Assembly (NCBI GenBank): GCA_041659785.1
Contig: JBAZXO010000003.1
Coordinates: 1,099-65,098 of the forward strand
Length of the DNA stretch: 64,000 nt
Direction of reading: 5' to 3'
Source of the DNA: Minisyncoccota bacterium
GTDB lineage: Bacteria; Patescibacteriota; Minisyncoccia; Phycocordibacterales; UBA9973
This document shows, one piece after another, positions 1 through 50,496 of this stretch; the stretch's first letter is position 1, and every line of letters begins with the position of its first letter. Made by a program: the position numbers and the translations under genes. Under the pieces are notes generated by a model, which saw only the letters and a list, made by a program, of their open reading frames with translations, was not told the origin of the DNA and searched no databases.

Positions 1-191
1 CCCATAGTAGATTTTTGAAATTTGTAATATCATACATGCTTTATGGCGACAAGCTTACAGCATCACAATATAACAATCTGAGTTATTTCAATAAAATAAA
101 TAATGCTGGTATGGCTATCTGTTTATACACTCATCATTGGTTCAAAAAAGACGAATGGAAGCTCTTGGTCTGGAATGATTTAGATTAAATT

Positions 192-7000: not shown

Positions 7001-10000
7001 CTCCTCCTTGTTGTAAAACTAAATTTCCATAATTTACTCCTCCTCCAATAATATTATCAATCACTCCATAGGTATCTCCAGTTGCAGCACCATGTCCAAA
7101 TCTAAGAAGTGAACCAGCTGAACCGAATGTAAAAGTACTTGTAGTTGTATAAATTCCATTATTGGGGCTTGTTGGTACTTCTCTTACCTCAAACGCTGCA
7201 TTTGGTGTTGATGTTCCAACTCCTATCTTCCCATTCCCTAAAACTACCATTCTTGTCCCACCAACCAATGTGTATGAAAGTCCTGAAGCAGTTGTAGAAA
7301 ATGCTACAGAAACAGTTAATACTGTATCACTTGAGATTGTTGCAATTGTTCGAACAGTTTCCCCTGATACTGTTATGGTGTCACCCACCTTAAACATATT
7401 TATAAATTTGGTACTTGTACCAGTTAATGTAGTAGTTCCATTTGTAGCAACAGTTCCCACTCCAGCAGTTCCCTGGGCGACAGAGAAATTTGATGAACTA
7501 TTTCCTAAGCCCGTTACAGCAAGAGTCGTGCTAACACTCACATTCCCCGTGTTGGTTGCTAAAGATATATTTCCTGAACCTGCTCCATGTCCTATAAAGA
7601 TACTAGCATTAGGCCCAATATTTAAATCATTACTTGCATCAATGTCTGCCAATCTAAGATTGGCTGTATTTGCCGCATTCCTTACATAAAGACCACTAGT
7701 ATTACTGAGCAGAATATTTCCAGCCACTTCCAATTTCTGCACTGGGGCTGTTACACCTACCCCTAAATTACCACTAATTATCATATTTCCTGCTCCAGGG
7801 TCTGTTGCGACATAACTATTTCCAAGAGATAAACCACCCGTGGTGGTCAATCTCATTTTTTCTGTAGCAACTGCGAGGTTACTAGCTGAAGTATAAAATT
7901 GTTGTGTGTATCCTACCGTTCTAAAATGTAAAGCTCCACTATTGCTAGAATCAAAAGCATTCAAACTTATTGTATTTGCAACAGGTTTAGCACTGTATAA
8001 CGTAGCATCTGTTGCTTCACTTATTTCTAATTTACCCCTAGGCCCCGTTGTGCCAATGCCGACGTTTCCATTGCCTCCAATTGTTATTCCACCTATACCA
8101 TCATAAGCACTAGTTGGAGTTTCTATTCTTATGGCATTCACAGGATTTCCAGAAGTGACTTGTCTTCCTTGTAAAATTAATCCAACACCATTTACAGAAT
8201 TTCCTTGTCCTGCTACCAAATATCCATAAGGTGTGCCTGCACCGTATCTGCCCAAATAATATTTTCCAGATGAATCATCAAGAATTTCCGATGAACCATT
8301 CACACTCAATTTCTGTCCCGGCGTCACTGTTCCGATACCGACGTTGCCAGAAGTTGTCGCCATATTTACACCACCAAGAAAAGCAGAGGAGTTAACTGTG
8401 TCATCTATTAAAATTCTTTTAAGAGCATGTAAACCGTAATCACCTGAAGTAACATAAATACCATTTGCAGCTGAATTTACGCTTAAAGCGTAGTTAACAT
8501 TCCCAGCACCTCCCACACTTAATAAAGAAACCGGTGCCGTTGTCCCAATCCCGACATTCCCATTTGTATCAATCCTCATTTTTTCTGCACTGTTAATAGA
8601 AAATATATATTTTCCTAGAGTAGCAGAGGGTAAATCAAACGCCATTTGTGGAGAAGATGCTCCATATCCAGCAATAATATTTGCGTATTCTGTAGATGCT
8701 GCAAAAAATCCTACTTTAGCTAATGTATTTGCTCCAGTCCCATTGTTTGATAATCTAAGAACTTCAGTAGTTGTCCCTGAAGAAGAACTCACTACATCTA
8801 ATTTAGCAGATGGCCCCGTCGTTCCTATCCCGACACGTCCGTTCGTCGTATCAACATTCAAAACATTGGTCGTCCCATCTGCTTTGTTGATTTGAATTGC
8901 AGTAATGGAATCTACGGAAGGATAAATTTTATTTCCTATTAAAGATGCAATTGTCGGAGTCACTATTGTTGGACTCGTATCCACCACAAACTTTGTTCCT
9001 GTTCCTGTTTGTGAAGCGATAGATGTGGCATTACCGACGGAAGTTATAGGACCAGTTAAGTTTGCATTTGTAGTTGCAGAGTCTGCAAGAACTGCTCGTG
9101 CAACATAAAGATTCGGAACGAGCGTTGTAGAAGTGACAACAAGTGGAGCTGTACCAATAGCTAAAGTAGAAATGAATTGATTATCTGTACGAACAGATCC
9201 ACCGGAAACATCCAACTTCGCTCCTGGCGCCTTCGTCCCGATGCCAATATTTCCTGTTGAAATAGTTGCACCTGTTCCATCAAGTGCCGTACCGTAAATC
9301 AAGTTACCGATGTTAAGCTGATTTGAGGCAGTTGCACTTGCTACGGCTACGTCATTACCGATCGAAATGTTGTTAGAACCTGTGGTGACTTGGTTACGAG
9401 AAGCAGCAAGGGTCGAATTACCGAGAAATACATTGCGAGCACCAGTGGTGACACCATAGCCAGACTGATAACCGACGAAAGTGTTGTAGTCGGAGCCATT
9501 AGCCGCGCTAACTCCAGCAGTAAAGCCAACATATACGCCCCCTTGGTTGGTATATAAAGCTAGACCTTGCGCGGCAGAACGACCAATTGCAGTGACCGAA
9601 GTAGCTGCTGTATTATAAACGAGAGCATCTGTACCAGTGGCAGTACTGCCACTACCTGTAGTGTTGTATTTTAAAGAATCCGCACCAGTCGCAACATTGC
9701 CACCACCAGTAGTATTGTATTGAAGAGACCCTGCACCAGTCGCAGTACTCTGATATCCTGTAGTATTGGTATTTAAACTGTTGTAACCATAAGCGGTATT
9801 TTGAGTAGCGGTCGTGCTATTTTGAAGAGATCCTGAACCACTCGCGGTATTTTGAATACCAGTTGTATTTGAAAAAAGAGCTTGGTAGCCATTTGCAGTA
9901 TTTTGATAACCGATATCGTTTTGACTAAGAGCTAGAGCGCCACTTGCGGTGTTGTAATAACCGGTGGTATTTGCACCAAGAGAGTTCGCGCCACTTGCAG

Positions 10001-26184: not shown

Positions 26185-26345
26185 AAAACTAGCTGATAAT
26201 AAGCTAGCGTAATGTTCTACTAGAAGCACAGAACACCATGCTAGCTGGACCTTTCGATCCCGTACCCTTTCGGATACGACCCAACGAAGAGTGCTAAACA
26301 TGGTGTTCAGTGACTTCGTTGGGTATTTTCGACCATATCCTAAAG
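26185..26345 (-). ncRNA. candidate structured RNA / 5'UTR element (GNRA-capped hairpins, 11-bp inverted repeat)
   Basis: Minus-strand reading shows CCCAACGAAG...CTTCGTTGGG (10-11 bp stem) and two adjacent GAAA-tetraloop hairpins (CGTATCC-GAAA-GGGTACG and GGATC-GAAA-GGTCC). No ORF. Lies 5' of the 25758-26177 gene in a 630-bp divergent spacer. Confidence 0.25.
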
Positions 26346-26810
26346 AAAATCTCTAAAGGGGTTAGGTCATCTCTATTAAATTGTATAGAAATTATACACC
26401 AAAAAAAGAGTTAAACAAAGAAGACAAAAAGGCTGGGGAAAATTAGAAATTTTTTTAGCCTTTTGAATTCATACATTGGAATTGGTTCGAGACAACCCCT
26501 ATCATGCTCTGTACGAAATACAATTCCAAATAGCCCTTATAAAACAAGATCTCAAAACTCGTTACTCGTACCAACACTTCAAGGTGGTATATTATTACCT
26601 TTTTCAATTTTGGAGTCGCAGACACGTGTCAGTATGTTAACCCCATCAGGCACAACGGACAGGAATTATTAATTGCGACAACACCCCTACCACCCCATCT
26701 AAATATAATTAATAAAATATCAAAACTAAGCTAGTGAAGATAAGGTCGATATTAAATCTTCAGAATACGAGCTAGTCTCTCGTGTAAATTTAATCTATTA
26801 AATTAATAAT

Positions 26811-36802: not shown

Positions 36803-37718
36803 ATCATAATTAATTAAATCTCAATACTAACTAAGATTTTTATATTTCAAAACACTCTAAAAAGTATAGCACTTTCAGCTTAATTTTTAAAGGGTTTTTA
36901 GGTAAATTTCGAAATAGACATTTAATAGAACTGTAGTAAAACTAATTTGTTTTTATTTATTTTTTATGTTATAATATATTCATACGATTGAAAAAGTTAG
37001 CTGTTAAAAGACAACAAACTTCACCCCCGAGCATAAAGATTTAAGATATAAGGTTAAGTTGAGTTATGTATAAAGATTTAAGATTAAAGATAAAGTTATG
37101 TTATGGAAAACATTAACAAATCTTTGTTTTTGGGGAACTCAAATAAAAAAAACTCCAATAAAACCTTGTATTACGATTGATATCCGAATATGAGGCAAAC
37201 CACTAATGAGAGATTCAGGTGTTGATGAAAGAGAGCTGGGAAAATGGTGTTCGACTTCCACCCAGCCTTGTGATCAGCATCGGAGTCTCACTGATTGATA
37301 TAGGAATAATTAAGTAAAGTAACGACATATCACCGATATTACTTTATGAAGGGGGTTCGCTATTTAAATCACACTGTTAATTGCATATCTATTATTTTTG
37401 AGCAAATTTTATTTAACACCTATACGTATTATAAATATTCTAAGTTACGGTGTTTCGAATAACGAGAAGCTAAAAAACACATCCAAATCTCTATCAAGGG
37501 GTAAGTCGAGCTCGTACCCTAAAGAGTATTTATTTAGCTCGCCTAAACCCATAATCAACCCCACTCTTTAATGGAGGTGGTATTTTAATAGTAAACTCAA
37601 AAGGAATAAATTTATCAGTTATAGAATGTCGTGGTGTGCCTGCTCCATTCCAATTGATAGTGACATAAGAAAACTGTAGCAAATTACAAGCTAAAAATAA
37701 AGAATATATTTAAAAAAT

Positions 37719-38090
37719 TTATTTTGCTTTTAAAATATATTCTTTAACTTTCTCTATCAATTCATTTATAGGATGCTGAGTCTTAACCATATAGTCTACT
37801 GCACCTAGCTGAAGTGCTTCTTTTATTTTACTATCTTCACCTAAATTAGACATAACTATCACTGGTATATTACGTAAATCTTCATCTGCTTTCAACTGTG
37901 ACAATACCTCCATGCCGTTTACTTTAGGTAAAAGAATATCCAAGAGGATAGCATCAGGTCTATTTTTCTTTACTAGAGGCAAGACTACACTACCATCTTT
38001 CGCGAGAATAACTTTGAAATTTTTTTCTTCAAATTTTTCTTGAAGGACACTACTCAATATATCTTCATCTTCAACTATAAGTATTGTCAT
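37719..38090 (-). CDS. single-domain response regulator (CheY-like receiver)
   Basis: ILIVEDE...LLDILLP receiver-domain signature with Asp pocket. 123 aa. Confidence 0.8.
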   Translation of the reverse strand: MTILIVEDEDILSSVLQEKFEEKNFKVILAKDGSVVLPLVKKNRPDAILLDILLPKVNGMEVLSQLKADEDLRNIPVIVMSNLGEDSKIKEALQLGAVDYMVKTQHPINELIEKVKEYILKAK

Positions 38091-38103: not shown

Positions 38104-38502
38104 TTAATTTTTAATATTTAAAATCTCTTTAATCTTTTCAATAATCTCCTCTAGACTCTTTTCTGTCTTCATAAAATAATAAGATGGCTCTAATTTTGTG
38201 ATGTCTCTGTTGCGCTCCTCATCACCAGCAGTAAGATTTGTTAAAATAATCACAGGCACATTTTTCCCCCAATCATCTTTGCGTAATTCTTTCAACATAC
38301 TCATCCCATCCATTTTAGGCATGAGTAAATCAAGTAAAATCAAATTTGGATGTTCACTCAATGCTAAAGTAAAACCATCAATCCCATTATAAGCCTTCAA
38401 TACTTCAAAACCTTCCGCAAGTAATTTTTCTTCCAAGGTATTAACTAAGATCTTTTCATCCTCAACCACTAAAATTAAAACTTTTTTCTTTGCTGTAATC
38501 AT
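38104..38502 (-). CDS. single-domain response regulator (CheY-like receiver)
   Basis: VLILVVEDE...ILLDLLMPKMDG receiver signature. 132 aa. Confidence 0.8.
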   Translation of the reverse strand: MITAKKKVLILVVEDEKILVNTLEEKLLAEGFEVLKAYNGIDGFTLALSEHPNLILLDLLMPKMDGMSMLKELRKDDWGKNVPVIILTNLTAGDEERNRDITKLEPSYYFMKTEKSLEEIIEKIKEILNIKN

Positions 38503-38534: not shown

Positions 38535-41297
38535 TTATCTTTTCGTCTTTTCTTTAATTATCGTTAAATAAAAAGTCGTACCTGATTTGATGTTCGACTC
38601 ACACCAAAGTTTACCACCACTTGATTCTATAATACTTTTTGCTAGATATAACCCGAGCCCGCTACCTTCAGGCTTAATCTTTGGTGAATTATCTCCACGC
38701 ACAAATTTCCCAAATTTTTTAATCTTTTCTAGGGTAGCACTATCAATAAATCCATCATTGTGTATAGAAATTAAATAATCTTTTTCTCTTTCACTAATTT
38801 TTAAATCTATATCCTTAGAATTCTCCTCGGAATAAACAATTGCATTATGTAATAAGTTTGATAAAGCTTCACTTAAAAAAAGCGGGTCACAATAAATATT
38901 TTTTATTTGTGATGGTATTGTAATTTTAATATTTTTTTTCTTTTTTTCAGTTAAATTTTTTAATGCCAAAACTAATTTATTAAATAGTTCATTTACATTA
39001 ATAATACTTTTATTCATTATTAACTTACCTGATTCAATCTTCGTAACGTTTAATAGATAATTAACTAAATTTATAATTCTTTTATTAGAAATTATTAAAT
39101 TATCTATTTTATCTTTTTGTTGAGGGGTAAAGTTTGAAGCATCCTTTAGGGTTTCTAGAATCCACTTGATTGCCGACAATGGGGTACGCAATTGATGAGA
39201 AGCCATAGAAAGAAAATCGTCCTTTGCCTGCTCAAGCTTCTTTAGAGAACTTATGTCTTGTGTATGGGTAACAAAATAAAGTGGCTTACCCAGAGCATCT
39301 CTTACTAAAGCAGTACTTATACTAACCCAAATAATATGTCCGTTTTTGTGTATATATCTCTTATCAAACTGCGCATAATCAATTTCACCCGACATCATTT
39401 TCTTAATAAATTCTGGACCTTTAGCTTTGTCGTCTATAAAAGTAATATCGCTAAAATTTTCATTTAATAATTCTTTTCTAGAATAACCAGTAATCTTACA
39501 CAAAGCATCATTAACCTCTAACCAACGACCACTAGTAGATACCACAGAAACACCAACAGCAGAATAATTAAAAATATTTCTAAAACGTTCTTCACTCTCA
39601 ATCAATTTATCTTCTGTTTTTTTACGTTCAGTAATATCACTTTGAATAGCTAAAAATCCAATAATTTTTTTATTTTCACCAAAGATTGGACTCATCATAC
39701 TTTCTACCATAATTAAACGTCCATTTTTTGCTTTATTCCAATGTTCATCTTTTACCACTTTTCCAGTAAGCAGATCTTTCCAAAGATTAACATATTCCTG
39801 ATGCTTTCTTAGCCCACTTTTTAAAACACGTGGAGTAACCTTTCCGACAATTTCAGCATAAGTATATCCGTAAGTTTTAGTAAACTCTGAATTAATGTAT
39901 GAAATTACACCATCTGTATTAGTTATATACATTACTTCACCAGAAGTTTGTACTGCTTTTTTAAACTTAGATACATCCTCACGAATACCATAAGTATTAA
40001 TACCAAAAGCAAGATCATCCGCTAACTCTTTCAAAATTTTTACTTCTTCAATGTTAAAAGAGTCTATTTTGTTTGAGTATATAGCGATCATCCCAAATGC
40101 TTTTTTGTTATTTATGAGCGGTAATGCAATACTTGATTGATAACCATATTTTAAAGCATTCTTTCTCCACGGAGTCATTGTTTTGTCTTTTGAAATTAAA
40201 CGCGAGATGTGGAATTTCATTGTTTTAATTGCCATTCCACTTGGTCCATTACCGTGTTTATTGTTTGCCCATGTCAATTTTGCTTTTTTAATATAATCAG
40301 ATCCAATCCCTGCATGAGCTACTGGCCGTATGGTCTTCATTTTATCGTGTTCTGCAAAACCAACCCATGCTAAAGAATAACCTCCAACTTCAACAGCAAT
40401 ACGACATGCTTCATTTAATAGTTCTTTGAGATCATTAAAATGAATTAATACTTGATTAATACTACTGACCATTTTTATTGCACGATTAATTCTTAAGATA
40501 TTTTCTTCTGCCTTTTTATTTTCAGATATGTCTCTTCCAATTGCTTGAAGATATGTATTCCCTTGTAAAACAAGCCTATTAAGAGCTATCTCTGCGTCAA
40601 AAAGACTACCGTCTTTTCTCTTGTGTTGCCAATAAAACCTCTGTGGCTGACCATTCAATGCTTTTTTTATATACATCAATGCTTTATCTTTTGAATATTG
40701 ACCATCTGGCTGTTTAATCGGAGAAAATTGTATCGGAGTATGGTTAACCATATCTGCCTTATCATCACAATTAAACATCTCTACGGCCTTAAGATTACAA
40801 TCCACAAAAGTACTTTTATCCATCAACCAAATAGCGTCATTGGCACTTTCAAAAAGACCATGAAATCTCTCTTCGTTGTCTCTTAAAATATTCTCAAATT
40901 TAACTATGTCAGTTATATCTCTAAAGACTCCCTGAAGATAACTTTTATTTTCAACTTTAATTAATTTGGCATTTACAGAAACTGGAATTCTTTTTTTATT
41001 TTTTGTTAAAATCTCTGTGCGTAAAACTCCTCCTTTTTTTATTTGATTCACAAACCCCATCATTGTCTCTTTCACCTTATCCTTTGGATGAAGTTCTAGA
41101 GCCTTCATGGAAAGAATCTTCTCTCTAGAATACCCTGTAAGCTTTTCAGCTTTCTTGTTGCATTCCACTATTTTTTTTGTTTTTGAGTCAGCAATAAAAA
41201 TAGCATCTGCGACATTTTCAAAAAAGAATTTATGTTGTTCTACTCCATGAGAATTTATCAAACTACTTTTTGAATTTTTTACTTTATTTTTAACCAT
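38535..41297 (-). CDS. multi-PAS/GAF sensor histidine kinase (cytoplasmic)
   Basis: Several PAS-like segments, GAF-like middle, H-box SHQLRTPLSAIKW, C-terminal HATPase (NLLHNAIVYS...GSGLGLYLAKSII). 920 aa. Confidence 0.85.
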   Translation of the reverse strand: MVKNKVKNSKSSLINSHGVEQHKFFFENVADAIFIADSKTKKIVECNKKAEKLTGYSREKILSMKALELHPKDKVKETMMGFVNQIKKGGVLRTEILTKNKKRIPVSVNAKLIKVENKSYLQGVFRDITDIVKFENILRDNEERFHGLFESANDAIWLMDKSTFVDCNLKAVEMFNCDDKADMVNHTPIQFSPIKQPDGQYSKDKALMYIKKALNGQPQRFYWQHKRKDGSLFDAEIALNRLVLQGNTYLQAIGRDISENKKAEENILRINRAIKMVSSINQVLIHFNDLKELLNEACRIAVEVGGYSLAWVGFAEHDKMKTIRPVAHAGIGSDYIKKAKLTWANNKHGNGPSGMAIKTMKFHISRLISKDKTMTPWRKNALKYGYQSSIALPLINNKKAFGMIAIYSNKIDSFNIEEVKILKELADDLAFGINTYGIREDVSKFKKAVQTSGEVMYITNTDGVISYINSEFTKTYGYTYAEIVGKVTPRVLKSGLRKHQEYVNLWKDLLTGKVVKDEHWNKAKNGRLIMVESMMSPIFGENKKIIGFLAIQSDITERKKTEDKLIESEERFRNIFNYSAVGVSVVSTSGRWLEVNDALCKITGYSRKELLNENFSDITFIDDKAKGPEFIKKMMSGEIDYAQFDKRYIHKNGHIIWVSISTALVRDALGKPLYFVTHTQDISSLKKLEQAKDDFLSMASHQLRTPLSAIKWILETLKDASNFTPQQKDKIDNLIISNKRIINLVNYLLNVTKIESGKLIMNKSIINVNELFNKLVLALKNLTEKKKKNIKITIPSQIKNIYCDPLFLSEALSNLLHNAIVYSEENSKDIDLKISEREKDYLISIHNDGFIDSATLEKIKKFGKFVRGDNSPKIKPEGSGLGLYLAKSIIESSGGKLWCESNIKSGTTFYLTIIKEKTKR

Positions 41298-41307
41298 AAA
41301 ACAAACT

Positions 41308-43032
41308 TTATTTATTTATTTCACTTATATTATCAACAACGTAACGACGTGATTTTTCTAAATTTTCTTTCATCTTTTTAAGAGTGTATTCTGTTTCTGC
41401 TATTTCACTCTCACTAAATTTACAGTCAGCCGTGTCTTTAAGTAATTTATCTAGATCATTCCTTAAACCATCAAAAATATTCAAAACATCCCTTTCTGCT
41501 ATAGTTACTCTTTTTTCTAATTTTCTACGCCATTTATAATAAGTAAAATAACCTGCACCAAAAGCGCCCAATAAAATAACAATCAAATAAATAAAAAACC
41601 ACGTTTCACTTATTTCTAAACTACCCAGAACAAATACCGGCCTTTGTTTAACAGTAATACTCTCTGAGGTAGCAGGAAAACTTGAAGCCATATTTTTATC
41701 CCGAGCTGTCGCAAGTAAATTATATTCCCCAGGATTTTGAAATTTATTTATAAGAATATCCCAATTACCATTACTATCTACTGATGTGGTCTGCTCAGCG
41801 ACAATTTGCTTTTGACTATTTTGAACTTGAGCGATAATTTCTACTCCAAGAGAAGCTGTTCCTCCAGCATGAATTCCCTCTTCGTTGGCAACCATGCTAC
41901 GACTTACATAAGTAATCACTGGTGAAACAATTGGTAGAATTTCTAAAGTTTCAGTATCTGAAGTAGAATTTCCAGCTTTATCTACAGCTGAAACATTAAG
42001 CTGATGCTTCCCCGGAAGAAGTGGAAAAAATTGATATTTGGTTAAATTGGTACTGGCAACAATAACTCCATCTAAACGAACAATATAATTATCAATACCG
42101 GATGTTAGGTCACTACTAGCAAAATTAATAGTTGGCTTTGGCTCAGCAGTTTTAAAACCTTCATTAGAAATAATTTTAAAAGGATTAGGTGGTGTAGCGT
42201 CTATGGCTAAACGATAATGTAAAGTAGGACTCCAGCCAATATTATTTTCTAAACGTATATGAAGATACCACACTCCATCAGATAAGGCTGAGAAAATCTT
42301 ATTACCTAGTAATGCTTCAGCACTTGCTAGTGGTGTAAAAATAGGATTTTTATTTATAACCACAGCAGCACTTATAGTATCAGAGCTTATATTCCAGCTA
42401 GCCTTAAAACTAGCTGAGTGATTATTCCATTTTGTAGGATCTGGATAAAATGGAACACTGAGACCCATCTGGGCTGGTAACTCTTTTGCTATTGTTGCTG
42501 CTTTTTTTATCCTCTCTACATTCACCGCTTGAAAATCAGCAGTAGAAGGAATATTTATATCTAAACCCTTAGCGGTAGTGTAAACATTGCTTCCAGTTCC
42601 ATCACTCGCAGTTATTGCACCGTCAGTAATCCCCAATCTACCTACCCCACTACCTTTTACCCTAAAAGCTATATGCATCAGTTTAAGGCTTGCTCCAGTA
42701 AAACCACTTGTAGATCCTCCGACGAAATTTATTGAACCTTTAACATTATCAAAAACTGGTTCTTGTAACCAAAAAGAAAAAACAGAATTAGTGCGATCAA
42801 TATTTGTAACTTCTAACAAGTTGGCGGGGAAAAAAATCGTAGCTTGAGCAGTATTAACATCTTGACCCTCACTATTTATTGAAACTAATACTACTACATC
42901 ATCCTTGGGTGAAGTAATATTTTTTTCTAATGACAAGTCTAAGGTCGCAGCATGAGCTAGTATCGGCAAATAAAACAAGAAGCCTACTATAAAAACAATA
43001 AGACAAAATTTAATTTTAAAATAAAGTTTCAT
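41308..43032 (-). CDS. membrane-anchored surface protein with N-terminal cohesin-like domain, Ig-like domains, C-terminal TM helix and cytoplasmic coiled coil
   Basis: Signal peptide. Residues roughly 30-170 (DLSLEKNITSPKDDVVVLVSINSEGQDVNTAQATIFFPANLLEVT...LKLMHIAFRVKGSGVGRLGITDG) follow the cohesin beta-sandwich pattern. TM WFFIYLIVILLGAFGAGYFTYY near the C-terminus. Confidence 0.5.
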   Translation of the reverse strand: MKLYFKIKFCLIVFIVGFLFYLPILAHAATLDLSLEKNITSPKDDVVVLVSINSEGQDVNTAQATIFFPANLLEVTNIDRTNSVFSFWLQEPVFDNVKGSINFVGGSTSGFTGASLKLMHIAFRVKGSGVGRLGITDGAITASDGTGSNVYTTAKGLDINIPSTADFQAVNVERIKKAATIAKELPAQMGLSVPFYPDPTKWNNHSASFKASWNISSDTISAAVVINKNPIFTPLASAEALLGNKIFSALSDGVWYLHIRLENNIGWSPTLHYRLAIDATPPNPFKIISNEGFKTAEPKPTINFASSDLTSGIDNYIVRLDGVIVASTNLTKYQFFPLLPGKHQLNVSAVDKAGNSTSDTETLEILPIVSPVITYVSRSMVANEEGIHAGGTASLGVEIIAQVQNSQKQIVAEQTTSVDSNGNWDILINKFQNPGEYNLLATARDKNMASSFPATSESITVKQRPVFVLGSLEISETWFFIYLIVILLGAFGAGYFTYYKWRRKLEKRVTIAERDVLNIFDGLRNDLDKLLKDTADCKFSESEIAETEYTLKKMKENLEKSRRYVVDNISEINK

Positions 43033-43068
43033 TTTTTAAATTTAATAAAATTAATTAATAATAAGTGA

Positions 43069-46000
43069 CTAAAACTGACTATTTAAAGCTCCTATAAAGA
43101 TACTCAAATCCGCAGAATCAACTTTACCATCATTATTCATATCGAGACTTTGACGAAGCTTTGTGTCAGTAGAACTATAACGAGCCATAAAAATACCCCA
43201 ATCTTGAATATCAACCTTAGCATCACCATTCAAATCTGCCTTGGGCACAAAAGTATTAATTATAAGAAATCTTTTCTCTAAAGAATAATCTGATGCATTA
43301 CCTTTAGTATCTACTTGACGAACACGCAATGTATGAGTACCTAAATCAAGATGGAAAGTATTGTATGTAATATTATAATTACCATCATTGTCAGCTGTTA
43401 CCATTTGGCCTGTCTTCACACCATCTATCATTAAACCAATTTTATAACCAGGCATTGCCTGACCTGTTATACCCATAAACGTACCTCGAGTCACAGATGA
43501 CTGGATCAAATCAACAGTAGGAGCCATTAAAATAGTTTTAATTAATTTATCATTAACCCCCAAAGTAAAAACTTTTGTTTGAGCAATATTTTGATTTTTA
43601 TCATAAACGACAAGAGCAAAAGAATTAACACCAGACGGTAGCATACCATTATATTTCACATTAAAATTACCACTTGCTCCGCCCGTAGCACTAGCACTAA
43701 CAGGAACCTTTTCACCTTCCCTAATAGCCATTATCTCTATATCAGCATCTGGGAAAGCTCTACCAGAAAAAGAAACCGTCGGAGTAACCGCCCCTGAAAC
43801 TCCACCTCCCCCACCAAGAGATATAACTGGAGGGATAGCTGAAAAGACAACGTCACTAGTAGCAGAAAAATCAAGAGTTGTTGGTGGTACGACATCACTT
43901 AAACTAAGGTCAACTGTTTCAACCACAGAATCAGTAATATTTTTTGTACCTATGCCGTTTACAATATTTACAAGTCCCGCACCTGTAGCACTGCCTGAAG
44001 TGACTAGATTTATATTTCCATTAAAAGTATCGGCTCTATTGTCCAAATCATCGACTGCTTCAATAGTAACTATTGTTGTTTGTCCGACTTGAACATTAAG
44101 AGGATCTAGGATCTTAAACTTTGTGGCAACTATAGGTGCTGTTGCAACTGTAAAGCTATTAGATATTCCAGTTTCTGTTCCTCCTGTACGAGTTGCCGTA
44201 ATTGTAAACAATCCAACATTTGAAATATTTACTGTTCTAGAAGAAAGTACACCTAGAACAAAAGCTGGAGTTGTGCCACCACCAGACGAAAGTGTTCCAC
44301 TTGATGAGATATCAGCTGTTCCAATGAAACCAGTAGCGATATTCCCGAAGGTGTCTTTCGCAGTGATACTTATATCAAATGATGTACCTACAGTTTTTGT
44401 TGAAATATTTCCACCTCCGCTAGCTTCAACAATAAAACTAGAAACTGATGCGGGATTTATATTAATTAGGGATGTGCCATTCGTAATTATTATTCCAGGA
44501 CCAAATACAGGATTATCAGAGGCATATATATTTAAAGATCCTACGAGGGTTCCAGTAAGATATACATTAGTAGAGTTTGATCCTTCTAAAATAGAAATAG
44601 ATGTAATGGATGCACCACCACTTAAAGAATCATAAAAATTAGCTGTACCGACGGGTGCGTCATTGTATAAATGAATGGTATCAACGCCAGAAGTGACATT
44701 GTTGTCATATTGATCTTTTCGACTAATGGAATATGTAATTCTATCACCAGCTACAGCGCTAGAAGCTCCAGTCATAATAAATTTAGCAGTAGGTCCTGGC
44801 GTGAAAGTGATATTTTTTGTAGAAGAAACATCTAACCCACTTCCCGCCGTGTCTTCTAATGCAAGAGAGACGACTTCTGCTTTTGTATCAACAATATTAA
44901 TTGCGCCGATTCCACTTGTGATGGTAACAATTCCACCCGGAGTAAGACCAGGACCAGTAGGAGATGTGTGCAGTGTTACACTACCATTATAAGAAGTATC
45001 AATATTTCCAGCGCCATCTTGCATTTTTACTTCAATGGAGGCATTTACTCCAACTACCGTTGACACTGGATCACTAATAACAAAACGAGTAGCAGAAATG
45101 GGCGCAGCAGAAACAGATATAGTGTCTGTGATGTCAATAATACCTGTATTACCATCAGCAATCGGTGTACCATCAGAAACAGTAACATTAATATTGTAAT
45201 CACCTGTATCGTTTGAGTATAAATAAAAATTATTAGACGAAGATCCATTTGCAATTACAAGAGATGTGATAACAGCCCCATCAATTGCTGAGTCATAAAA
45301 TGCTGTGGTACTGACAAGTCCAAGATTGTGGTAAAGATAAACAGTTAAGTCGCCACTTGTGACAGCATTATTATGAGCATCAAAACGCGAAACTGTGTAC
45401 ATAGCACGACTTCCTACATGCATACTACCAGGATGATTTAATGTAAAATGATTTGTGAGTCCAGGAATGACTGTAAATGTTTGAGCATTTGATGTGCCGC
45501 CGCCTGGCGTGCCGTTTAAAACAGTTATATCAAAAGTTCCAGCGGTAATTAAATCTGTAGCTGGAATTGTGGCAGTTAATTCTGTCGAACTGACATATGA
45601 AGTAACTCGAGCAGATCCGGCAAAGTTTACAACAGAACTTGAGATGAAATTGGTTCCATTAACGGTCATAGTAAATTCTGCGTCACCAGAAATTTTTGAA
45701 GCTGAAGAAAGAGAAGTAGTGGTCGGAACTGGGTTAACGATAGAAAGTGTTTGAATATTCGATGTGCCACCGCCTGGAGTCGAATTAAAGACAGTAACGT
45801 TTATATTCCCAGTAGAGGATAAATCACTAGTTAAAATTGTTACGGTGAGTTGTGTATTATCAATATATGTAGTGGTCCGAGAAGATCCGTTGAAATTTAC
45901 TACAGAACCAGAGACAAAGTTTGTTCCATTAACTGTTAAAATAAGATTACTATCTCCTACATTTTTCGAAGATGGAGAAAGAAAAGTAATTACTGGAACT

Positions 46001-46815
46001 GGGTTTTCATTGACTGCAAAAGAAGCTACAACAGAAATATTAGCAGTGACATTTACATCAGTACGAATAGCAGTCAAAACTCCATCACTCCAAGAAGTGA
46101 AATGATATCCAAGATCAGGTGAAGCAATAACAGCTGTACCCGAAGCACCATAGTTCACTGTTTGTAGTGTGGTGCCGACAATTACACCATTGGCTCCTGC
46201 AGTATATGAGAGGGTAAAAGTAGGAATTGTATAATTTATCGTTATCCTAATATGATCTACAGAAGCTGTTATAGCATTTCCTTGTGTTGTATTTTTATAT
46301 GCTGATAATGCTAATCCAAAATTAGTATTATTTATATCGGATGGTGTCCATGTTTCTCCCCATAAATCAGAAATACTACCATACGTTGTATATGCATCAG
46401 ATGTTCCCCACCAATTTGCATTTGATTTATCAGTTACACTAATTGTGCCACCTTTTATAATTCTTACTCTGTAATCTTTAATTCGTGATGCGCTGGCAGA
46501 TTTTTTTTCTACTTCCACGGTAATACCATTTATAGTTGCTCCTGATGGAATTGCAAAACCAAAATTTGTTGCTTTCAGATAATGACTTATTTGATTATCA
46601 TTAAGACTAGCTGTCGCATTACTATTATTAGAAGAAATAATGTTACCGGGATTTGACCAAGAAATAGTCCCCACAGAAGAATCATCTGTACCAATTACTG
46701 GATTATTTGGTCCGCTTGTAGTCGCTTCAGCTTTTGAAACAAAACCAAAAATAGAAAAAATGGCAAGTAAAACTAATAAGGCAAAAAATATTTTTTTATT
46801 AAAATATAGAGACAT
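43069..46815 (-). CDS. large secreted multi-Ig/IPT-domain protein with Listeria-Bacteroides repeat and C-terminal type-I dockerin
   Basis: Signal peptide. IPT-like PVITFLSPSSKNVGDSNLILTVNGTNF (x2), LSYTAGANGVIV...GYHFTSWSDG (Flg_new-type repeat). C-terminal DLNGDAKVDIQD...DMNNDGKVDSADLSIFIGAL (two Ca-binding dockerin segments). Confidence 0.75.
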   Translation of the reverse strand: MSLYFNKKIFFALLVLLAIFSIFGFVSKAEATTSGPNNPVIGTDDSSVGTISWSNPGNIISSNNSNATASLNDNQISHYLKATNFGFAIPSGATINGITVEVEKKSASASRIKDYRVRIIKGGTISVTDKSNANWWGTSDAYTTYGSISDLWGETWTPSDINNTNFGLALSAYKNTTQGNAITASVDHIRITINYTIPTFTLSYTAGANGVIVGTTLQTVNYGASGTAVIASPDLGYHFTSWSDGVLTAIRTDVNVTANISVVASFAVNENPVPVITFLSPSSKNVGDSNLILTVNGTNFVSGSVVNFNGSSRTTTYIDNTQLTVTILTSDLSSTGNINVTVFNSTPGGGTSNIQTLSIVNPVPTTTSLSSASKISGDAEFTMTVNGTNFISSSVVNFAGSARVTSYVSSTELTATIPATDLITAGTFDITVLNGTPGGGTSNAQTFTVIPGLTNHFTLNHPGSMHVGSRAMYTVSRFDAHNNAVTSGDLTVYLYHNLGLVSTTAFYDSAIDGAVITSLVIANGSSSNNFYLYSNDTGDYNINVTVSDGTPIADGNTGIIDITDTISVSAAPISATRFVISDPVSTVVGVNASIEVKMQDGAGNIDTSYNGSVTLHTSPTGPGLTPGGIVTITSGIGAINIVDTKAEVVSLALEDTAGSGLDVSSTKNITFTPGPTAKFIMTGASSAVAGDRITYSISRKDQYDNNVTSGVDTIHLYNDAPVGTANFYDSLSGGASITSISILEGSNSTNVYLTGTLVGSLNIYASDNPVFGPGIIITNGTSLININPASVSSFIVEASGGGNISTKTVGTSFDISITAKDTFGNIATGFIGTADISSSGTLSSGGGTTPAFVLGVLSSRTVNISNVGLFTITATRTGGTETGISNSFTVATAPIVATKFKILDPLNVQVGQTTIVTIEAVDDLDNRADTFNGNINLVTSGSATGAGLVNIVNGIGTKNITDSVVETVDLSLSDVVPPTTLDFSATSDVVFSAIPPVISLGGGGGVSGAVTPTVSFSGRAFPDADIEIMAIREGEKVPVSASATGGASGNFNVKYNGMLPSGVNSFALVVYDKNQNIAQTKVFTLGVNDKLIKTILMAPTVDLIQSSVTRGTFMGITGQAMPGYKIGLMIDGVKTGQMVTADNDGNYNITYNTFHLDLGTHTLRVRQVDTKGNASDYSLEKRFLIINTFVPKADLNGDAKVDIQDWGIFMARYSSTDTKLRQSLDMNNDGKVDSADLSIFIGALNSQF

Positions 46816-46956
46816 AAAATTTGGGTTTCAATACATAAACCAAAATCTAAAAATGTCATCAATCTCCGGGAGTTTTGTTACTATTTTATTATACCAAAAT
46901 ATATAGAATTACTAGAAAGTTATCCACAGGAAGAGCCCAATAAGAAGATATTTTTA

Positions 46957-47634
46957 TTAATTCGTCTCTTCTCTCACTATTTTCCCATCATCTAGGTGTA
47001 TTATCCTCTGCGCAAATTTACTAAATTCAACTTCATGAGTAACCATTATTATGGTCTGTCCTTCCTCGGCGTGTAATTTTTTAAAAATATCCATAATGAC
47101 ACGCGAAGACTCATTATCTAGATTCGCAGTTGGCTCATCGGCAAAAAGAATCTTGGGTTCATGGGCTATCGCACGAGCGATACTGACCCTCTGTTGTTCT
47201 CCACCAGAGAGTTGTCCAGGTAAATTGTTTAATCTTTTCTCTAAACCAACCAAGGTTAAATGCTCTATCGCTTTTTCATAAGCTATTTTTTCAGGAAAGT
47301 TTTGCATAAGGAGTGGTAGGGCAACATTTTCAAGTGCAGTTAATTCTGGAAGTAATGCATAATCTTGAAATACGTAACCCAATTCCGAAAGACGAAAAGC
47401 AGTTTTTTCTTCTATGGGAAGTGGCGCCATATTTTTTTCATTTATAAAAATCTCTCCACTCGTCGGTTCATCGAGCAAACTCATTTGATAAAGTAAGGTA
47501 CTTTTTCCAGCTCCGGAACGACCCATGATGGCAATGAATTCTCCACTCTTCGCCTTGAAATCTATTCCTTTTAGAACTTCTGTTGTGCTCTCCCCGTCTA
47601 TGAATGATTTTTTTAAATTTTTTATTTCAATCAT
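46957..47634 (-). CDS. ABC transporter ATP-binding protein (MacB/LolD/FtsE-like)
   Basis: Walker A GRSGAGKST, signature LSGGEQQRVSIARA, Walker B ILFADEPT. 225 aa. Confidence 0.85.
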   Translation of the reverse strand: MIEIKNLKKSFIDGESTTEVLKGIDFKAKSGEFIAIMGRSGAGKSTLLYQMSLLDEPTSGEIFINEKNMAPLPIEEKTAFRLSELGYVFQDYALLPELTALENVALPLLMQNFPEKIAYEKAIEHLTLVGLEKRLNNLPGQLSGGEQQRVSIARAIAHEPKILFADEPTANLDNESSRVIMDIFKKLHAEEGQTIIMVTHEVEFSKFAQRIIHLDDGKIVREETN

Positions 47635-47639
47635 AAAAA

Positions 47640-48896
47640 TTAATTTCTACCTAAAATAGAATCTAAGGTGTTTTTACGAACGACCAAACGCGCAGGAACA
47701 AAACCAGCAATAATTGTCGTAATCATTAGTAATCCTATTCGTAACATCGTTCCACTAAACGGAGCCACAAGTATCCCATCACTGAAAGTAAAATCAATCG
47801 GATGCACTCTCATAAAAGGCTGCAGAAATCCATAGAGAACAATAACCCCTATCACTGAACCACAAAATGCATAAAAGAAGGATTGAAGAATATATGAAAT
47901 CTCAATTGCTGATTCGTTAATACCAATACCTTTCAAAATACCAATAAATTTTCTTCTAGTTATCGCATTAATAAAGATAACAATAAAAATTGTGATCGAA
48001 GCTACGACAAGTCCTATAGAAGAGAGCATATTCCCAAGCAAAGCAAATGTATCTATCATGTCTTTAATAAATTTAGGCTGAGCATCAGCATAGGTTTGAA
48101 CTTTTGCAATCTTATCTACTCCATTTTGTTTTAAAATATCTCGTACAACCGTTGGATCGGCACCCTTTTTTAACTTAATAGATATTTCAGCCACATTATA
48201 ATCATTGCGACCAATCATACTTCTAAATTGAGAATCAATCATAAAAACTCTCATATTCAGTTCATCGACTTTCGCTTTTATGATTCCTTTTATGGTGACT
48301 TCACGCACTATACCATTTACACTCATACGAATTTTTGTACCTGGTGCAATATTTTCTAGTGTTGAAAATCCTGGAGAATCAATTGGTAAATATTTTTTAT
48401 CTAAAAATGACCCAATTAAAACTTGGTCATAATCCCCTGGAGCTAAATATTCTCCTTCAACTATAAACTTTGAAATATTAGTTACATTGTTCTCTGCGAC
48501 TGGATCGATGCCGACGATGGATGCTGCTGCAGTATTGGCTTTATCTTTTTCATTTGTGCGTGTTTTATAATTTGCCTCTAGAGTCCCCCTATCTAAATAT
48601 CTCGGAGTAAATGCTTCTACCTCTGGTATTGATTTTATGATGTTAATGACTTCAGGACTATTCTCTATGTATGTTTTGTTATTTAATGAAGAAATAATTA
48701 CGTCACTTGTGTAATTCGTACGCACTGCATCAACTGCTCCTTGAATGAGCCCAACTAAAATTCCACTCACCACCACAAGGTTAAGGAACGTAAAAAACAT
48801 CACGAAGATAATGAGTATCGTAGTCCATGGACTAGATCTTCTTATTTGGCGTTTTGCCAAAAAAAATCCAATACGAATATTTAATGAAGAAAACAT
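47640..48896 (-). CDS. ABC transporter permease (FtsX/MacB-like)
   Basis: N-terminal TM, large periplasmic domain, C-terminal 3-TM bundle. Start chosen at MFSSLN (ATG 48896) to avoid an 86-nt overlap with the adaptor gene. ORF-track start 48983 is the alternative. Confidence 0.65.
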   Translation of the reverse strand: MFSSLNIRIGFFLAKRQIRRSSPWTTILIIFVMFFTFLNLVVVSGILVGLIQGAVDAVRTNYTSDVIISSLNNKTYIENSPEVINIIKSIPEVEAFTPRYLDRGTLEANYKTRTNEKDKANTAAASIVGIDPVAENNVTNISKFIVEGEYLAPGDYDQVLIGSFLDKKYLPIDSPGFSTLENIAPGTKIRMSVNGIVREVTIKGIIKAKVDELNMRVFMIDSQFRSMIGRNDYNVAEISIKLKKGADPTVVRDILKQNGVDKIAKVQTYADAQPKFIKDMIDTFALLGNMLSSIGLVVASITIFIVIFINAITRRKFIGILKGIGINESAIEISYILQSFFYAFCGSVIGVIVLYGFLQPFMRVHPIDFTFSDGILVAPFSGTMLRIGLLMITTIIAGFVPARLVVRKNTLDSILGRN

Positions 48897-48897
48897 A

Positions 48898-50496
48898 TTA
48901 TTTGACGTTGGACGTCTGAGATTCCTGACGTCCAACGTCTGGTTTAAGGATGACCTGATCCCCGTCTGAGAGTCCTGAAACAATTTCAGCTTGACCTAGA
49001 GAAGAAACACTTCCTATTACCACCTCCCTTTCTTCTATATTTTTACCAACTTTTACTTGTACAAATTTTTTACCAGCTTTATCCAAGATAACACCCCCAG
49101 GAACTACTATGACATTAGGTTTATCGAAGGTTATTATTGAAACGTTCGCCGTCATGCCTGATTTTATACGTTCATCTTTTTCATTAAACTGAAGTTTTAC
49201 TTTATAAGTAGAAACTCCGTCTCTTATTGTTTCTGCTGGATCTATCGAAACTACTTTTGCATTAAATAAAACACTACTACCGTATGCATCCAAGGTAACT
49301 TTTGCTTCATTATTTAATTTTATTACAGCAATATTCACTTCAGGGACGAAGCTCTCTATCTGGAAAGTTCCCACGCTCATCATCTGAACCAAGGGAGCAT
49401 TAATGGAAGCAACTTCTCCGACTTTCGCATCTATTTTTGTTATTATTCCGCTAAAAGGCGCAATAATTAATGTCTTTTGCAAACTGGCCCTCGCATTGTC
49501 GACATTTGCTTGCGCGCTTTTCATTTGAGCAATCTGCATATCAATGTCTTCTTTTGTGGCGCCAGCCTGTTCAAGTTTCAAATTATTTTGTTTAGTCGTT
49601 AATTCAGATTGAGCATTTTTATATGAAGTAAAAGCCCCTGATAAATTTGAAACTGAAGTATCTATGGCAAGTCTAGCTGTCGATGTATCAGACTTCCAAG
49701 AACTTGGAATACTGCTACCATTTGAATACGAAGCACTTGGATTATTTGTAATTAAAGAAACCTCTGCCAAGAAATCTTTTAATTTATTCATATTGTTTCC
49801 TACTTCTAAAACATACCTATCTAGATCTGAACTGGAATCTATTTTAGCAATAGACTGTTTCCATAAATTGAGGATATTTCCAATAATAATTCTATCCTGA
49901 TTGACAGAGCCCAGAAGAGAACTATCGCTAACGAATATAACAATAGATGGATTACTTGAAGACGGATTATTGAAAAATTGATCAATCTTATTTTTTATGG
50001 CATCATCTGATTTTGTATATGCATCATTTATTGAATTAATAACACTTTCTCTTGCTTGATTAAAACTAGTCTGTGCACTCAAGACAGAAGATTCAGTAAT
50101 GGCGATTTGTTCACTCCTAGTTCCTAACTGTAAAGACTTCAAATTAAGTTGTTCTTTTTCAAGAATAGCTTCTTTTTGTGCCAGGTCAGCCTGTAAATCT
50201 CCATTTTCAACACTCGACAAAACTGAACCTGCATTTACGGTGTCACCAACTTTAACTCTAACAGAAGACACTCTTCCTCCCTGGGAAAAACCAAGACTAA
50301 CATCACTCGATGCTATGACATGTCCAGAGATAGAAACTTGATTCACAAAATCAGCATGACGGATAGCAACAATTTCTATTGTGTCTTTTTTGTTATTAAA
50401 AACAAAAATTCCACTAATAATTAAAATTGTGATAATAGCATAAATAACGTATTTTTTATCTTTTAAGAAAGACAAAATCTTATTTAAAAAAGTCAT
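48898..50496 (-). CDS. periplasmic adaptor (HlyD/MacA-like membrane fusion protein)
   Basis: N-terminal TM anchor, biotinyl/lipoyl-like hairpin (VKVGDTVNAGSVL), long coiled coil, C-terminal beta-barrel. 532 aa. Confidence 0.7.
   Translation of the reverse strand: MTFLNKILSFLKDKKYVIYAIITILIISGIFVFNNKKDTIEIVAIRHADFVNQVSISGHVIASSDVSLGFSQGGRVSSVRVKVGDTVNAGSVLSSVENGDLQADLAQKEAILEKEQLNLKSLQLGTRSEQIAITESSVLSAQTSFNQARESVINSINDAYTKSDDAIKNKIDQFFNNPSSSNPSIVIFVSDSSLLGSVNQDRIIIGNILNLWKQSIAKIDSSSDLDRYVLEVGNNMNKLKDFLAEVSLITNNPSASYSNGSSIPSSWKSDTSTARLAIDTSVSNLSGAFTSYKNAQSELTTKQNNLKLEQAGATKEDIDMQIAQMKSAQANVDNARASLQKTLIIAPFSGIITKIDAKVGEVASINAPLVQMMSVGTFQIESFVPEVNIAVIKLNNEAKVTLDAYGSSVLFNAKVVSIDPAETIRDGVSTYKVKLQFNEKDERIKSGMTANVSIITFDKPNVIVVPGGVILDKAGKKFVQVKVGKNIEEREVVIGSVSSLGQAEIVSGLSDGDQVILKPDVGRQESQTSNVK

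Follow-up and report, generated by a model that had tools for sequence, protein, structure and literature searches.

A cohesin-dockerin gene pair as a likely display system for a variable fibrillar adhesin in Patescibacteria

What do a cohesin and a dockerin do in a non-cellulolytic bacterium with a small genome, and are the two partners of each other? A large part of bacterial diversity belongs to the Patescibacteria (CPR), whose cultivated members live attached to other cells. To our knowledge, the mechanism by which the host is held is unknown for most Patescibacteria, and their surface proteins mostly carry the annotation 'hypothetical'. Here, we analyzed computationally two adjacent genes and their surroundings in a 64-kb stretch of patescibacterial DNA, hereafter referred to as the window.

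Gene order and conservation of the locus

The first-pass annotation had pointed to positions 41308-46815, and these coordinates are exact: they cover two open reading frames on the minus strand, which are separated by 36 nt (Table 1). The gene order that had been claimed is reversed, since all genes lie on the minus strand and the dockerin gene is transcribed first and the anchor gene second. The Pfam domains show that a PAS/GAF histidine kinase and two receiver-only response regulators are indeed present on the same strand, but these genes, which had been placed upstream, are located downstream of the pair, with the kinase gene starting 10 nt past the anchor gene. All five genes follow each other in the order dockerin gene, anchor gene, two-component genes. 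Consensus scans of the region for promoters and terminators remained at chance level and returned no more sites than shuffled sequence, so that we infer co-transcription from the 10-36 nt gaps and regard the five genes as a putative operon-like cassette. We also considered MacB-type exporter genes upstream as part of the cassette and rejected them, because none are found beside the pair in related loci with annotated flanks.

Table 1. Features of the five-gene cassette in the window.
Feature	Position	Strand	Basis
Candidate operon promoter, extended -10-like TGGTATAAT	46888..46896	-	read from sequence, 73 nt 5' of dockerin gene ATG; weak evidence
Gene 1, secreted fibre protein with terminal dockerin, 1248 aa	43069..46815	-	ORF; NCBI MFA5932253.1 'dockerin type I domain-containing protein'
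Fibre signal peptide, aa 1-31, predicted cleavage ...AEA/TT	46723..46815	-	hydropathy; A-x-A motif from sequence
N-terminal head, aa 32-200	46216..46722	-	lineage-variable; no family match
Fibre stalk, aa 201-1010	43786..46215	-	InlB B-repeat, CoaZ PGGG repeats, Ig-like repeats
Conserved pre-dockerin module, aa 1011-1180	43276..43785	-	holds Big_13/Big_6 Ig-like domain; Big_13 4.1e-9
Type-I-like dockerin, C-terminal, aa 1190-1248	43072..43248	-	PF00404; PDB dockerin matches; two Ca loops
Gene 2, cohesin-tipped type-I membrane anchor, 574 aa	41308..43032	-	ORF; NCBI MFA5932252.1 'hypothetical protein WC793_02645'
Anchor signal peptide, aa 1-28, predicted cleavage AHA/A	42949..43032	-	hydropathy
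Cohesin module, aa 29-161	42550..42948	-	9-10-strand beta-sandwich, no helices
Anchor stalk, three Ig-like beta domains, aa ~200-277, 300-365, 372-470	41623..42435	-	AF2 secondary structure
Anchor TM helix, aa 478-499	41536..41601	-	hydropathy; AF2 helix from aa 476
Anchor cytoplasmic tail, aa 500-574, two helices, conserved	41311..41535	-	AF2 helices 476-536, 541-573
Gene 3, soluble PAS-PAS-GAF-PAS-PAS histidine kinase, 920 aa	38535..41297	-	Pfam PAS, GAF, HisKA, HATPase_c
Gene 4, receiver-only response regulator 'RR1' type, 132 aa	38104..38502	-	PF00072 5.2e-18, without output domain
Gene 5, receiver-only response regulator 'RR2' type, 123 aa	37719..38090	-	PF00072 3.1e-24

For comparison, we searched genome contigs with a profile built from an 8-sequence alignment and compared 122 related loci in addition to the window, all of them from Patescibacteria where named. 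A gene ending in a dockerin lies directly upstream of 117 anchor genes, corresponding to about 90 non-redundant pairs; of the remaining anchors, three have no upstream sequence and two, both short cohesin-only proteins, have no dockerin neighbour. Among the 6370 ORFs of the related loci, 119 match the dockerin query, and 117 of these 119 are the gene directly upstream of the cohesin-anchor gene. The gap between the two ORFs has a median of 15.5 nt (90 non-redundant pairs). The pair is a clade-wide cassette rather than an isolated curiosity, very widespread over the classes of Patescibacteria, and this synteny strengthens the initial reading of the two proteins as anchor and cargo. In the literature on cohesins and dockerins in CPR/Patescibacteria (Parcubacteria, Saccharibacteria, OD1), we found no description of the cassette.

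The dockerin fibre and its cohesin anchor

The two-segment type-I dockerin proposed for the C-terminus of gene 1 was borne out by the Pfam Dockerin_1 profile (PF00404), which matches aa 1193-1245 with 29.1 bits (gathering score 22.9) and covers profile positions 2-57 of 57. As read from the sequence, the protein carries two duplicated EF-hand-like segments, each a 12-residue loop followed by a helix. Both loops, D1194-D1205 (DLNGDAKVDIQD) and D1225-D1236 (DMNNDGKVDSAD), have D or N at positions 1, 3, 5, 9, and 12, so that the spacing of the Ca-coordinating Asp/Asn residues is kept in both segments. In 24 aligned family dockerins, D1 and D12 are invariant in both loops, as is D5 of loop 2, and N3 is nearly invariant. 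The family consensus, DLN.DG.IDI.DWSIF...DLNGDGKVD..DLSIF, retains both loops and the duplicated D-x-S-I-F helix motif, and a profile of these 24 sequences matches solved dockerins (2y3n_B at 1.3e-8, 4fl4_A, CelS 2mte_A, and 1daq_A).

The rest of the fibre protein, which is 100% identical to a database entry from a Candidatus Paceibacterota MAG, has its sole hydrophobic segment at the N-terminus (aa 1-32, hydropathy). A Pfam scan of the head (aa 32-200) gave no match. Of the first 42 related loci that we compared, just one (L006, 3e-73) has this head in common with the window. The stalk consists of an InlB B-repeat (aa 201-269), two CoaZ PGGG repeats (aa ~273-449), and Ig-like repeats of ~110 aa (aa 450-1010); it matches Pfam Flg_new_2 (8.7e-9) and NCBIfam NF058597 (187 bits), and its repeat copy number differs from locus to locus. 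The pre-dockerin module was found in every partner protein compared except that of locus L039, including the shortest ones (420-566 aa). Complete fibre genes in the related loci encode 124-2737 aa (median 1484), and the base of the fibre, i.e., the pre-dockerin module and the dockerin, is conserved while repeat number and head vary. With its signal peptide, distal head, tandem-repeat stalk, and terminal anchor module, the gene 1 protein has the architecture of a fibrillar adhesin, and an adhesive role is predicted for it.

Cohesin and dockerin are the defining modules of the cellulosome, and the pair might be taken for a minimal version of it that tethers a polysaccharide-degrading activity to the cell. 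The same inference was drawn in earlier CPR genome papers, and in candidate phyla, dockerin and 'cellulosome anchoring' genes were interpreted as cellulosomal (SR1 genome, PMC3812714). Pfam and NCBIfam scans of the fibre protein, with the head and pre-dockerin segments also scanned separately, detected no catalytic, glycoside hydrolase, lyase, esterase, or CBM domain. In the anchor, no glycoside hydrolase, lyase, esterase, or CBM domain was detected either. The source is a Candidatus Paceibacterota MAG, so that its description as a non-cellulolytic bacterium with a small genome holds. Moreover, the anchor carries one cohesin and no scaffoldin array, the catalogue of the 64-kb window holds exactly one dockerin protein and one cohesin, and the partners that we compared from related loci consist of these same repeat modules. 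As the scans detected no CAZyme or CBM domain, we rejected the cellulosomal reading, which we consider highly improbable.

Whether the anchor domain is a cohesin required a different approach. The window anchor does not match the Pfam cohesin profile PF00963 at E<=1, and a direct sequence search of the PDB returned no cohesin for it. However, 39 of 77 full-length anchor homologues match PF00963 (best 5.6e-10), and the anchor family profile matches Ruminococcus flavefaciens cohesins with E-values of 0.004-0.009. The cohesin fold is a flattened, nine-stranded beta-sandwich (jelly-roll) of roughly 140 aa. A Foldseek search with the full-length anchor model (AF2, pLDDT 90.8) gave only generic multi-Ig matches (TM <=0.24), and a model of the domain alone was therefore needed; this model shows the nine-stranded flattened beta-sandwich. 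As modelled, the N-terminal fold is specifically that of a cohesin and not of a generic Ig domain. The cohesin-like sandwich noticed initially thus stands as regards its fold and its family, whose members match the HMM, but not as a PF00963 match of the window protein itself, whose cohesin membership rests on transitive homology and fold. Conservation is higher in strands b3/b5/b6/b8 and the b8-b9 loop (0.62-0.91) than in b1/b2/b4/b7/b9 (0.44-0.61), and the conserved 8-3-6-5 sheet is the putative dockerin-binding face.

The anchor belongs to a family of at least 4164 clusters (50% identity) at E<=1e-3, and about half of the top 150 are 540-620 aa long. A28 and A29, which flank the predicted signal peptide cleavage, are nearly invariant across the family. 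The three Ig-like domains of the stalk match Big_13, Y_Y_Y, and Big_6 (Pfam) and, by profile, the SiiE Ig domains (2yn3). The C-terminal membrane anchor and helical cytoplasmic part that had been noted are supported by hydropathy and by a tail of ~75 aa that is helical in the AF2 model, respectively. The motif KWRRKLEKR directly after the TM helix constitutes a positive-inside flank. Together, signal peptide, single C-terminal TM helix, and positive cytoplasmic flank place the cohesin at the membrane-distal N-terminus, above the three Ig-like domains. In most related anchors, phmmer recovers the cytoplasmic tail (1e-7 to 1e-36).

Both domains could be real and the neighbours still not be partners: the dockerin might bind another cohesin, e.g., one of the short cohesin-TM proteins of 236-267 aa, or act only as a Ca-stabilised module, and the anchor cohesin might bind something else. 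In line with this, cohesin proteins without a dockerin neighbour occur in these lineages (L037, L040, P0002), as do proteins with two cohesin-like stretches. Cohesin-dockerin covariation by mutual information (90 pairs) reached a top z of 5.5, no stronger than the 4.5-5.8 of control domain pairs, a level that argues neither for nor against binding. The adjacency in 117 loci and the near-exclusive assignment of dockerin matches to that neighbour speak against it, as do the conserved dockerin helices, the conserved 8-3-6-5 sheet of the cohesin, and the presence of exactly one dockerin and one cohesin in the whole window. We consider it quite unlikely that the two are not partners.

Two-component genes and proposed mechanism

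The kinase encoded by gene 3 has a HisKA (7.3e-14) and HATPase_c (6.9e-17) core with the H-box SHQLRTP, as read from the sequence, and hydropathy revealed no hydrophobic segment. In the regulators of 132 and 123 aa (acceptor motifs LLDLLMP and LLDILLP), no domain other than Response_reg is significant, and they carry no DNA-binding output. With a HisKA and HATPase_c core and receivers without an output domain, these genes encode a two-component system with CheY-like single-domain regulators. RR1 orthologues occur in related loci, and RR2 is the type that most commonly follows the anchor directly in other genomes, with orthologues beside the pair at 1e-36 to 1e-50. A response regulator or histidine kinase gene abuts the pair in 28 of the 29 non-redundant loci with both flanks, and gene order varies. 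The two-component linkage is conserved, not incidental.

We consider it likely that the cassette is a dedicated, non-cellulosomal cohesin-dockerin display of a variable fibrillar adhesin that is functionally tied to the two-component system. After Sec export, the fibre dockerin would bind Ca2+ and dock on the conserved 8-3-6-5 cohesin face, so that the fibre would be held by its C-terminus on a stalk of roughly 10-15 nm that clears the cell wall. The lineage-variable N-terminal head would project outward and bind a partner or host cell or a substrate. The cassette would thereby amount to a fibrillar adhesin in which a dedicated cohesin-dockerin joint takes the place of the wall anchor. The soluble kinase and the two CheY-like regulators would most likely modulate or read out the apparatus by protein-protein contacts, possibly with the conserved cytoplasmic helical tail of the anchor, a link drawn solely from synteny. 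As context, the cultivated saccharibacterium Southlakia epibionticum has an essential envelope protein with a dockerin domain, whose gene lies close to a response regulator and a PAS kinase, one tRNA gene away (PMC10633639, main text and supplementary file 1).

The same joint could also serve a structural role, with the fibre being part of a cell-envelope or S-layer-like coat tethered by the anchor and not an adhesin. Distribution over the classes of Patescibacteria is expected of a housekeeping envelope component, the fibre consists almost entirely of Ig-like repeats, and the dockerin-domain envelope protein of Southlakia is essential (PMC10633639). The best-ranked Foldseek match of the complete anchor model comes from an archaeal S-layer protein, at a TM of 0.16 and hence uninformative. 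However, the more than 20-fold range in fibre length and the lineage-specific head fit ligand-driven diversification better than a lattice, and one gene per anchor with attached signalling genes is atypical of S-layer loci. A coat function is possible in our view, albeit unlikely.

The adhesin display might even act as an integrin-like, trans-envelope adhesion sensor, a proposal we hold to be rather doubtful. Fibre load or ligand would be relayed via the TM helix to the cytoplasmic hairpin, which would engage regulators and kinase (outside-in), or a phosphorylated regulator would act on the tail and control fibre display or clustering (inside-out). If true, Patescibacteria would have in this sensor a clade-wide and possibly essential means of detecting their host and holding on to it.

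These cells probably use the cassette to display a variable adhesin on their surface. The locus provides a concrete, testable model in which two conserved parts, the cohesin stalk as socket and the pre-dockerin module with its dockerin as plug, carry a rapidly diversifying fibre and are linked genetically to one of the few signal transduction systems that these reduced genomes retain. Under this model, CPR genes annotated as 'cellulosome' would no longer point to carbohydrate degradation, and the cohesin or the dockerin offers a conserved handle to pull down, label, or block the fibre in many uncultivated lineages. The cassette may also connect to the essential saccharibacterial dockerin-domain envelope protein from Tn-seq (PMC10633639).

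Comparison with known systems

Among the closest systems is the Ruminococcus flavefaciens cohesin ScaE (2zf9), which pairs with CttA, an adhesin that carries a dockerin (type III). A sortase links ScaE to the wall, and ScaE is part of a cellulosome and also binds ScaB. Here, the cohesin sits on a type-I membrane anchor that has an Ig stalk and whose cytoplasmic tail is conserved, and it belongs to a one-to-one pair that shares an operon-like cassette with two-component genes and occurs in Patescibacteria that are non-cellulolytic. Clostridium thermocellum OlpA and OlpC (3ul4, 4dh2) are anchoring proteins with a single type-I cohesin as well, but SLH repeats fix them to the S-layer or wall, their cargo consists of enzymes, and they lack linked signalling genes. 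Pfam and NCBIfam searches of the proteins studied here found no SLH domain, and attachment is by the TM helix, not by SLH or sortase.

Non-cellulosomal cohesins and dockerins are the subject of a survey (Peer et al., 2009, cited as ref. 42 in PMC10066038). Those of Archaeoglobus fulgidus (cohesin 2xdh) and Clostridium perfringens (NagH/NagJ/NanJ; 2vo8, 2w1n, 2jnk/2ozn) join secreted enzymes or toxins, or their partners are not known. We know of no such module with a membrane-spanning cohesin anchor and cytoplasmic tail, an obligate adjacent partner gene, or a conserved two-component linkage. In its variable N-terminal head, tandem Ig-like stalk of variable copy number, and C-terminal attachment device, the fibre resembles Gram-positive fibrillar adhesins. 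These are linked to peptidoglycan by sortase through a C-terminal LPXTG motif, whereas the attachment proposed here would be non-covalent, from the dockerin to a separate membrane stalk protein.

Locus layout and the dockerin-bearing fibre

The interval 41308-46815, described in the first-pass annotation as two adjoining large genes, is fully occupied by two minus-strand ORFs spaced 36 nt apart, which encode the dockerin protein (fibre) and the membrane anchor. Transcription runs from the dockerin protein through the anchor and a kinase to two receiver-only regulators; the two-component genes, earlier placed upstream of the pair, thus lie downstream, the original order having been reversed. 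The short gaps and an extended -10-like TGGTATAAT, situated 73 nt 5' of the dockerin gene ATG within the 141-nt gap after an ABC ATPase gene, suggest that the five genes form a single transcript. In public databases, both large proteins trace to a single contig of 85,481 bp in a Candidatus Paceibacterota MAG, where they are labelled 'dockerin type I domain-containing protein' (1248 aa) and 'hypothetical protein WC793_02645' (574 aa).

Features of the locus, the anchor protein and the remaining window
Feature	Position	Strand	Details
Dockerin (fibre) gene	43069-46815	-	1248 aa
Anchor gene	41308-43032	-	574 aa
Kinase gene	38535-41297	-	920 aa; 10-nt gap after anchor
First receiver-only regulator	38104-38502	-	32-nt gap after kinase
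Second receiver-only regulator	37719-38090	-	13-nt gap after preceding regulator
Extended -10-like element	46888-46896	-	
MacB-type exporter set	46957-50496	-	HlyD-like adaptor, FtsX permease, ABC ATPase
Gap after last regulator	36803-37718		916 nt
LOOT RNA family match (Rfam RF03000)	26247-26368	-	full model length
2484-aa ORF	4041-11495	-	Peptidase_S74, aa 2250-2302
Anchor signal peptide	aa 1-28		AHA/A
Anchor cohesin	aa 29-161		
Anchor linker	aa ~165-190		lower confidence
Anchor Ig-like domains (three)	aa ~200-277, 300-365, 372-470		
Anchor TM helix	aa 478-499		followed by KWRRKLEKR
Anchor cytoplasmic helical tail	aa 500-574		

The exporter set sits immediately 5' of the dockerin gene and shares its strand. 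Since no such exporter was seen beside the pair in related loci with annotated flanking genes, it is probably unrelated. The gap after the last regulator contains neither an ORF of at least 60 aa nor an Rfam match (E<=1). Elsewhere in the window, the match to the LOOT RNA family scores 68.1 bits against a gathering score of 46.4. The 2484-aa ORF, which has no dockerin and lies in a stretch of raised GC (0.42-0.44 vs about 0.33 elsewhere), has Peptidase_S74, an intramolecular chaperone of the endosialidase/tail-fibre type, as its sole Pfam match.

The fibre ends in the textbook dockerin that had been proposed. Pfam Dockerin_1 matches aa 1193-1245 over its entire 57 positions with 29.1 bits (gathering score 22.9), and the loops DLNGDAKVDIQD (1194-1205) and DMNNDGKVDSAD (1225-1236) carry Asp/Asn at positions 1, 3, 5, 9, and 12. 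The whole 1248-aa protein matches the solved dockerins 5lxv_B and 2jnk_A weakly, and a family profile of 24 dockerins matches 2y3n_B (1.3e-8), 4fl4_A, CelS 2mte_A, and 1daq_A, among others. Ahead of the dockerin, the fibre begins with a signal peptide and a 170-aa head without family match, followed by an InlB B-repeat, a pair of 'choice-of-anchor Z' PGGG repeats (NF058597, 187 bits), Ig-like repeats of ~110 aa each, and a pre-dockerin module containing a Big_13/Big_6 domain. By hydropathy, the signal peptide is its only membrane segment, and domain-family searches revealed no catalytic or carbohydrate-binding domain.

Cohesin domain and topology of the anchor

The N-terminal domain of the anchor is a genuine but divergent cohesin. 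The cohesin-like fold noticed earlier stands, although the window protein itself matches no cohesin HMM, including PF00963, at E<=1 and has no PDB sequence match. With aa 25-175 as query, a full HMMER scan returned 4164 clusters at E<=1e-3, and about half of the best 150 matches measure 540-620 aa, the length class of the window anchor. Among 77 aligned full-length members, 39 match PF00963 (best 5.6e-10) and 73 match Big_13. The AlphaFold2 (AF2) model of the domain, built with 45 homologues (pLDDT 93.9, pTM 0.87), is helix-free and contains nine to ten strands. A generic Ig domain, the alternative reading, is contradicted by these PF00963 matches, by the family profile, which finds R. flavefaciens cohesins as its top PDB matches for this domain, and by Foldseek, in which the top 50 PDB matches were all cohesin modules (TM 0.61-0.78, E 3e-8 to 7e-6). 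Eight family members of 686-901 aa (P0009, P0026, P0036, P0038, P0043, P0047, P0078, and P0141) contain two cohesin-query stretches each; tandem-cohesin variants therefore exist.

The full-length AF2 model (pLDDT 90.8) and hydropathy indicate a type-I membrane protein with the cohesin at its membrane-distal end, and bear out the C-terminal TM anchor claimed earlier. The cytoplasmic tail is itself conserved in related anchors.

The gene pair and its two-component neighbours

Cohesin-alignment scans, whose patterns cover part of the anchor family, yielded 38 loci from one genome per species and 80 from JGI metagenomes; homologues of the dockerin protein added four. ORFs in these loci were called mechanically and searched with the window domains. 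In these 122 loci together with the window, 117 cohesin-anchor genes are immediately preceded on the same strand by a dockerin-ending gene, and upstream sequence is absent for three. Only two cohesin genes have no dockerin neighbour, both encoding short (236-267 aa) cohesin-only proteins. Conversely, 117 of the 119 dockerin matches among 6370 ORFs are the upstream neighbour of an anchor. Removal of near-duplicates left 90 pairs, whose two ORFs are a median 15.5 nt apart. All named sources are Patescibacteria (Paceibacterota, Minisyncoccia, Wolfe-, Staskawicz-, Jorgensen-, Uhr-, Falkow-, Magasanik-, Lloyd-, Nealson-, and Vogelbacteria), including two MAGs labelled Saccharibacteria, and some anchor-family members are already auto-annotated as 'cohesin domain-containing protein'.

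The short proteins without a dockerin neighbour (L037 3149-3859, L040 7869-8672) and the likewise short homologue P0002, which ends in a hydrophobic, TM-like segment, consist of a signal peptide and an anchor-family cohesin domain. They may represent a second, minimal cohesin-anchor class in Azam- and Yanofskybacteria.

Twenty-nine non-redundant loci extend at least 1.5 kb to either side of the pair, and in 28 of them the pair borders directly on a response-regulator or histidine-kinase gene; the remaining one has a regulator ~2 kb upstream. Gene orders (D, dockerin gene; A, anchor; H, kinase; 1/2, regulator types) include D-A-H-1-2 in the window, D-A-2-H-1, H-2-D-A, and D-A-2-2. Because order varies between lineages, the genes have stayed adjacent through rearrangement, and this favours functional coupling over inherited synteny. 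The regulators consist of a receiver only; the kinases differ in their sensor domains, which are PAS/GAF in the window and CHASE or DUF4118 elsewhere. The window kinase has no hydrophobic segment by hydropathy and is predicted to be cytoplasmic. Regulators and anchor tail might engage in post-translational cross-talk; we regard integrin-like signalling through the anchor as improbable. In four loci, proteins of 564-802 aa adjoin the pair (L006 2052-4460, L033 6746-8962, L035 4383-6077, L036 11387-13681), with an N-terminal receiver domain followed by about 450-700 aa without Pfam match. They may supply an output component that the signalling module otherwise lacks.

Fibre variability, proposed surface display and known systems

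The base of the fibre is constant and its tip variable. Dockerins are strongly conserved (consensus DLN.DG.IDI.DWSIFL.RW...DLNGDGKVD..DLSIF.RTL), with the D-x-S-I-F motif duplicated in both helices, and the 170-aa pre-dockerin module is found in every compared partner protein but that of locus L039. The number of ~110-aa repeats depends on the locus, complete fibre genes span 124-2737 aa, one cut short by its contig end encodes more than 3291 aa, and the window head recurs in 1 of 42 loci checked. With strands assigned to sheets from cohesin topology rather than coordinates, the canonical dockerin-binding sheet is more conserved (mean top-residue fraction: b3 0.73, b5 0.70, b6 0.64, b8 0.62, b8-b9 loop 0.91) than the opposite one (b1 0.44, b2 0.53, b4 0.61, b7 0.59, b9 0.44). 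We consider it likely that the two proteins form a cohesin-dockerin display pair, in which the fibre C-terminus would dock Ca-dependently on the stalk-borne cohesin and the variable head would point outward as an adhesin. Covariation between cohesin and dockerin columns did not exceed that of control domain pairs and speaks neither way. Within this model, adhesion to a host or partner is favoured over a purely structural coat.

Our literature search found no published description of this cohesin-dockerin cassette. An early SR1 genome paper assigned genes for dockerin and 'cellulosome anchoring' to carbon degradation (PMC3812714). In a 2023 Tn-seq study of Southlakia epibionticum, the dockerin-domain envelope protein SEML1_0315, encoded one tRNA gene away from the response regulator SEML1_0317 and the PAS kinase SEML1_0318, was essential (PMC10633639). 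A cellulosome failed every specific test, with no multiple cohesins, enzymes, CBMs, SLH or sortase anchoring. The nearest analogues are the single-cohesin surface anchors ScaE of R. flavefaciens, which holds the adhesin CttA, and OlpA/OlpC of C. thermocellum, as well as the non-cellulosomal cohesin-dockerin pairs of Archaeoglobus and C. perfringens and the fibrillar adhesins of Gram-positive bacteria. New here are a cohesin stalk that spans the membrane and has a cytoplasmic tail, a partner gene hard-wired one-to-one, the conserved association with two-component genes, and the occurrence in Patescibacteria.
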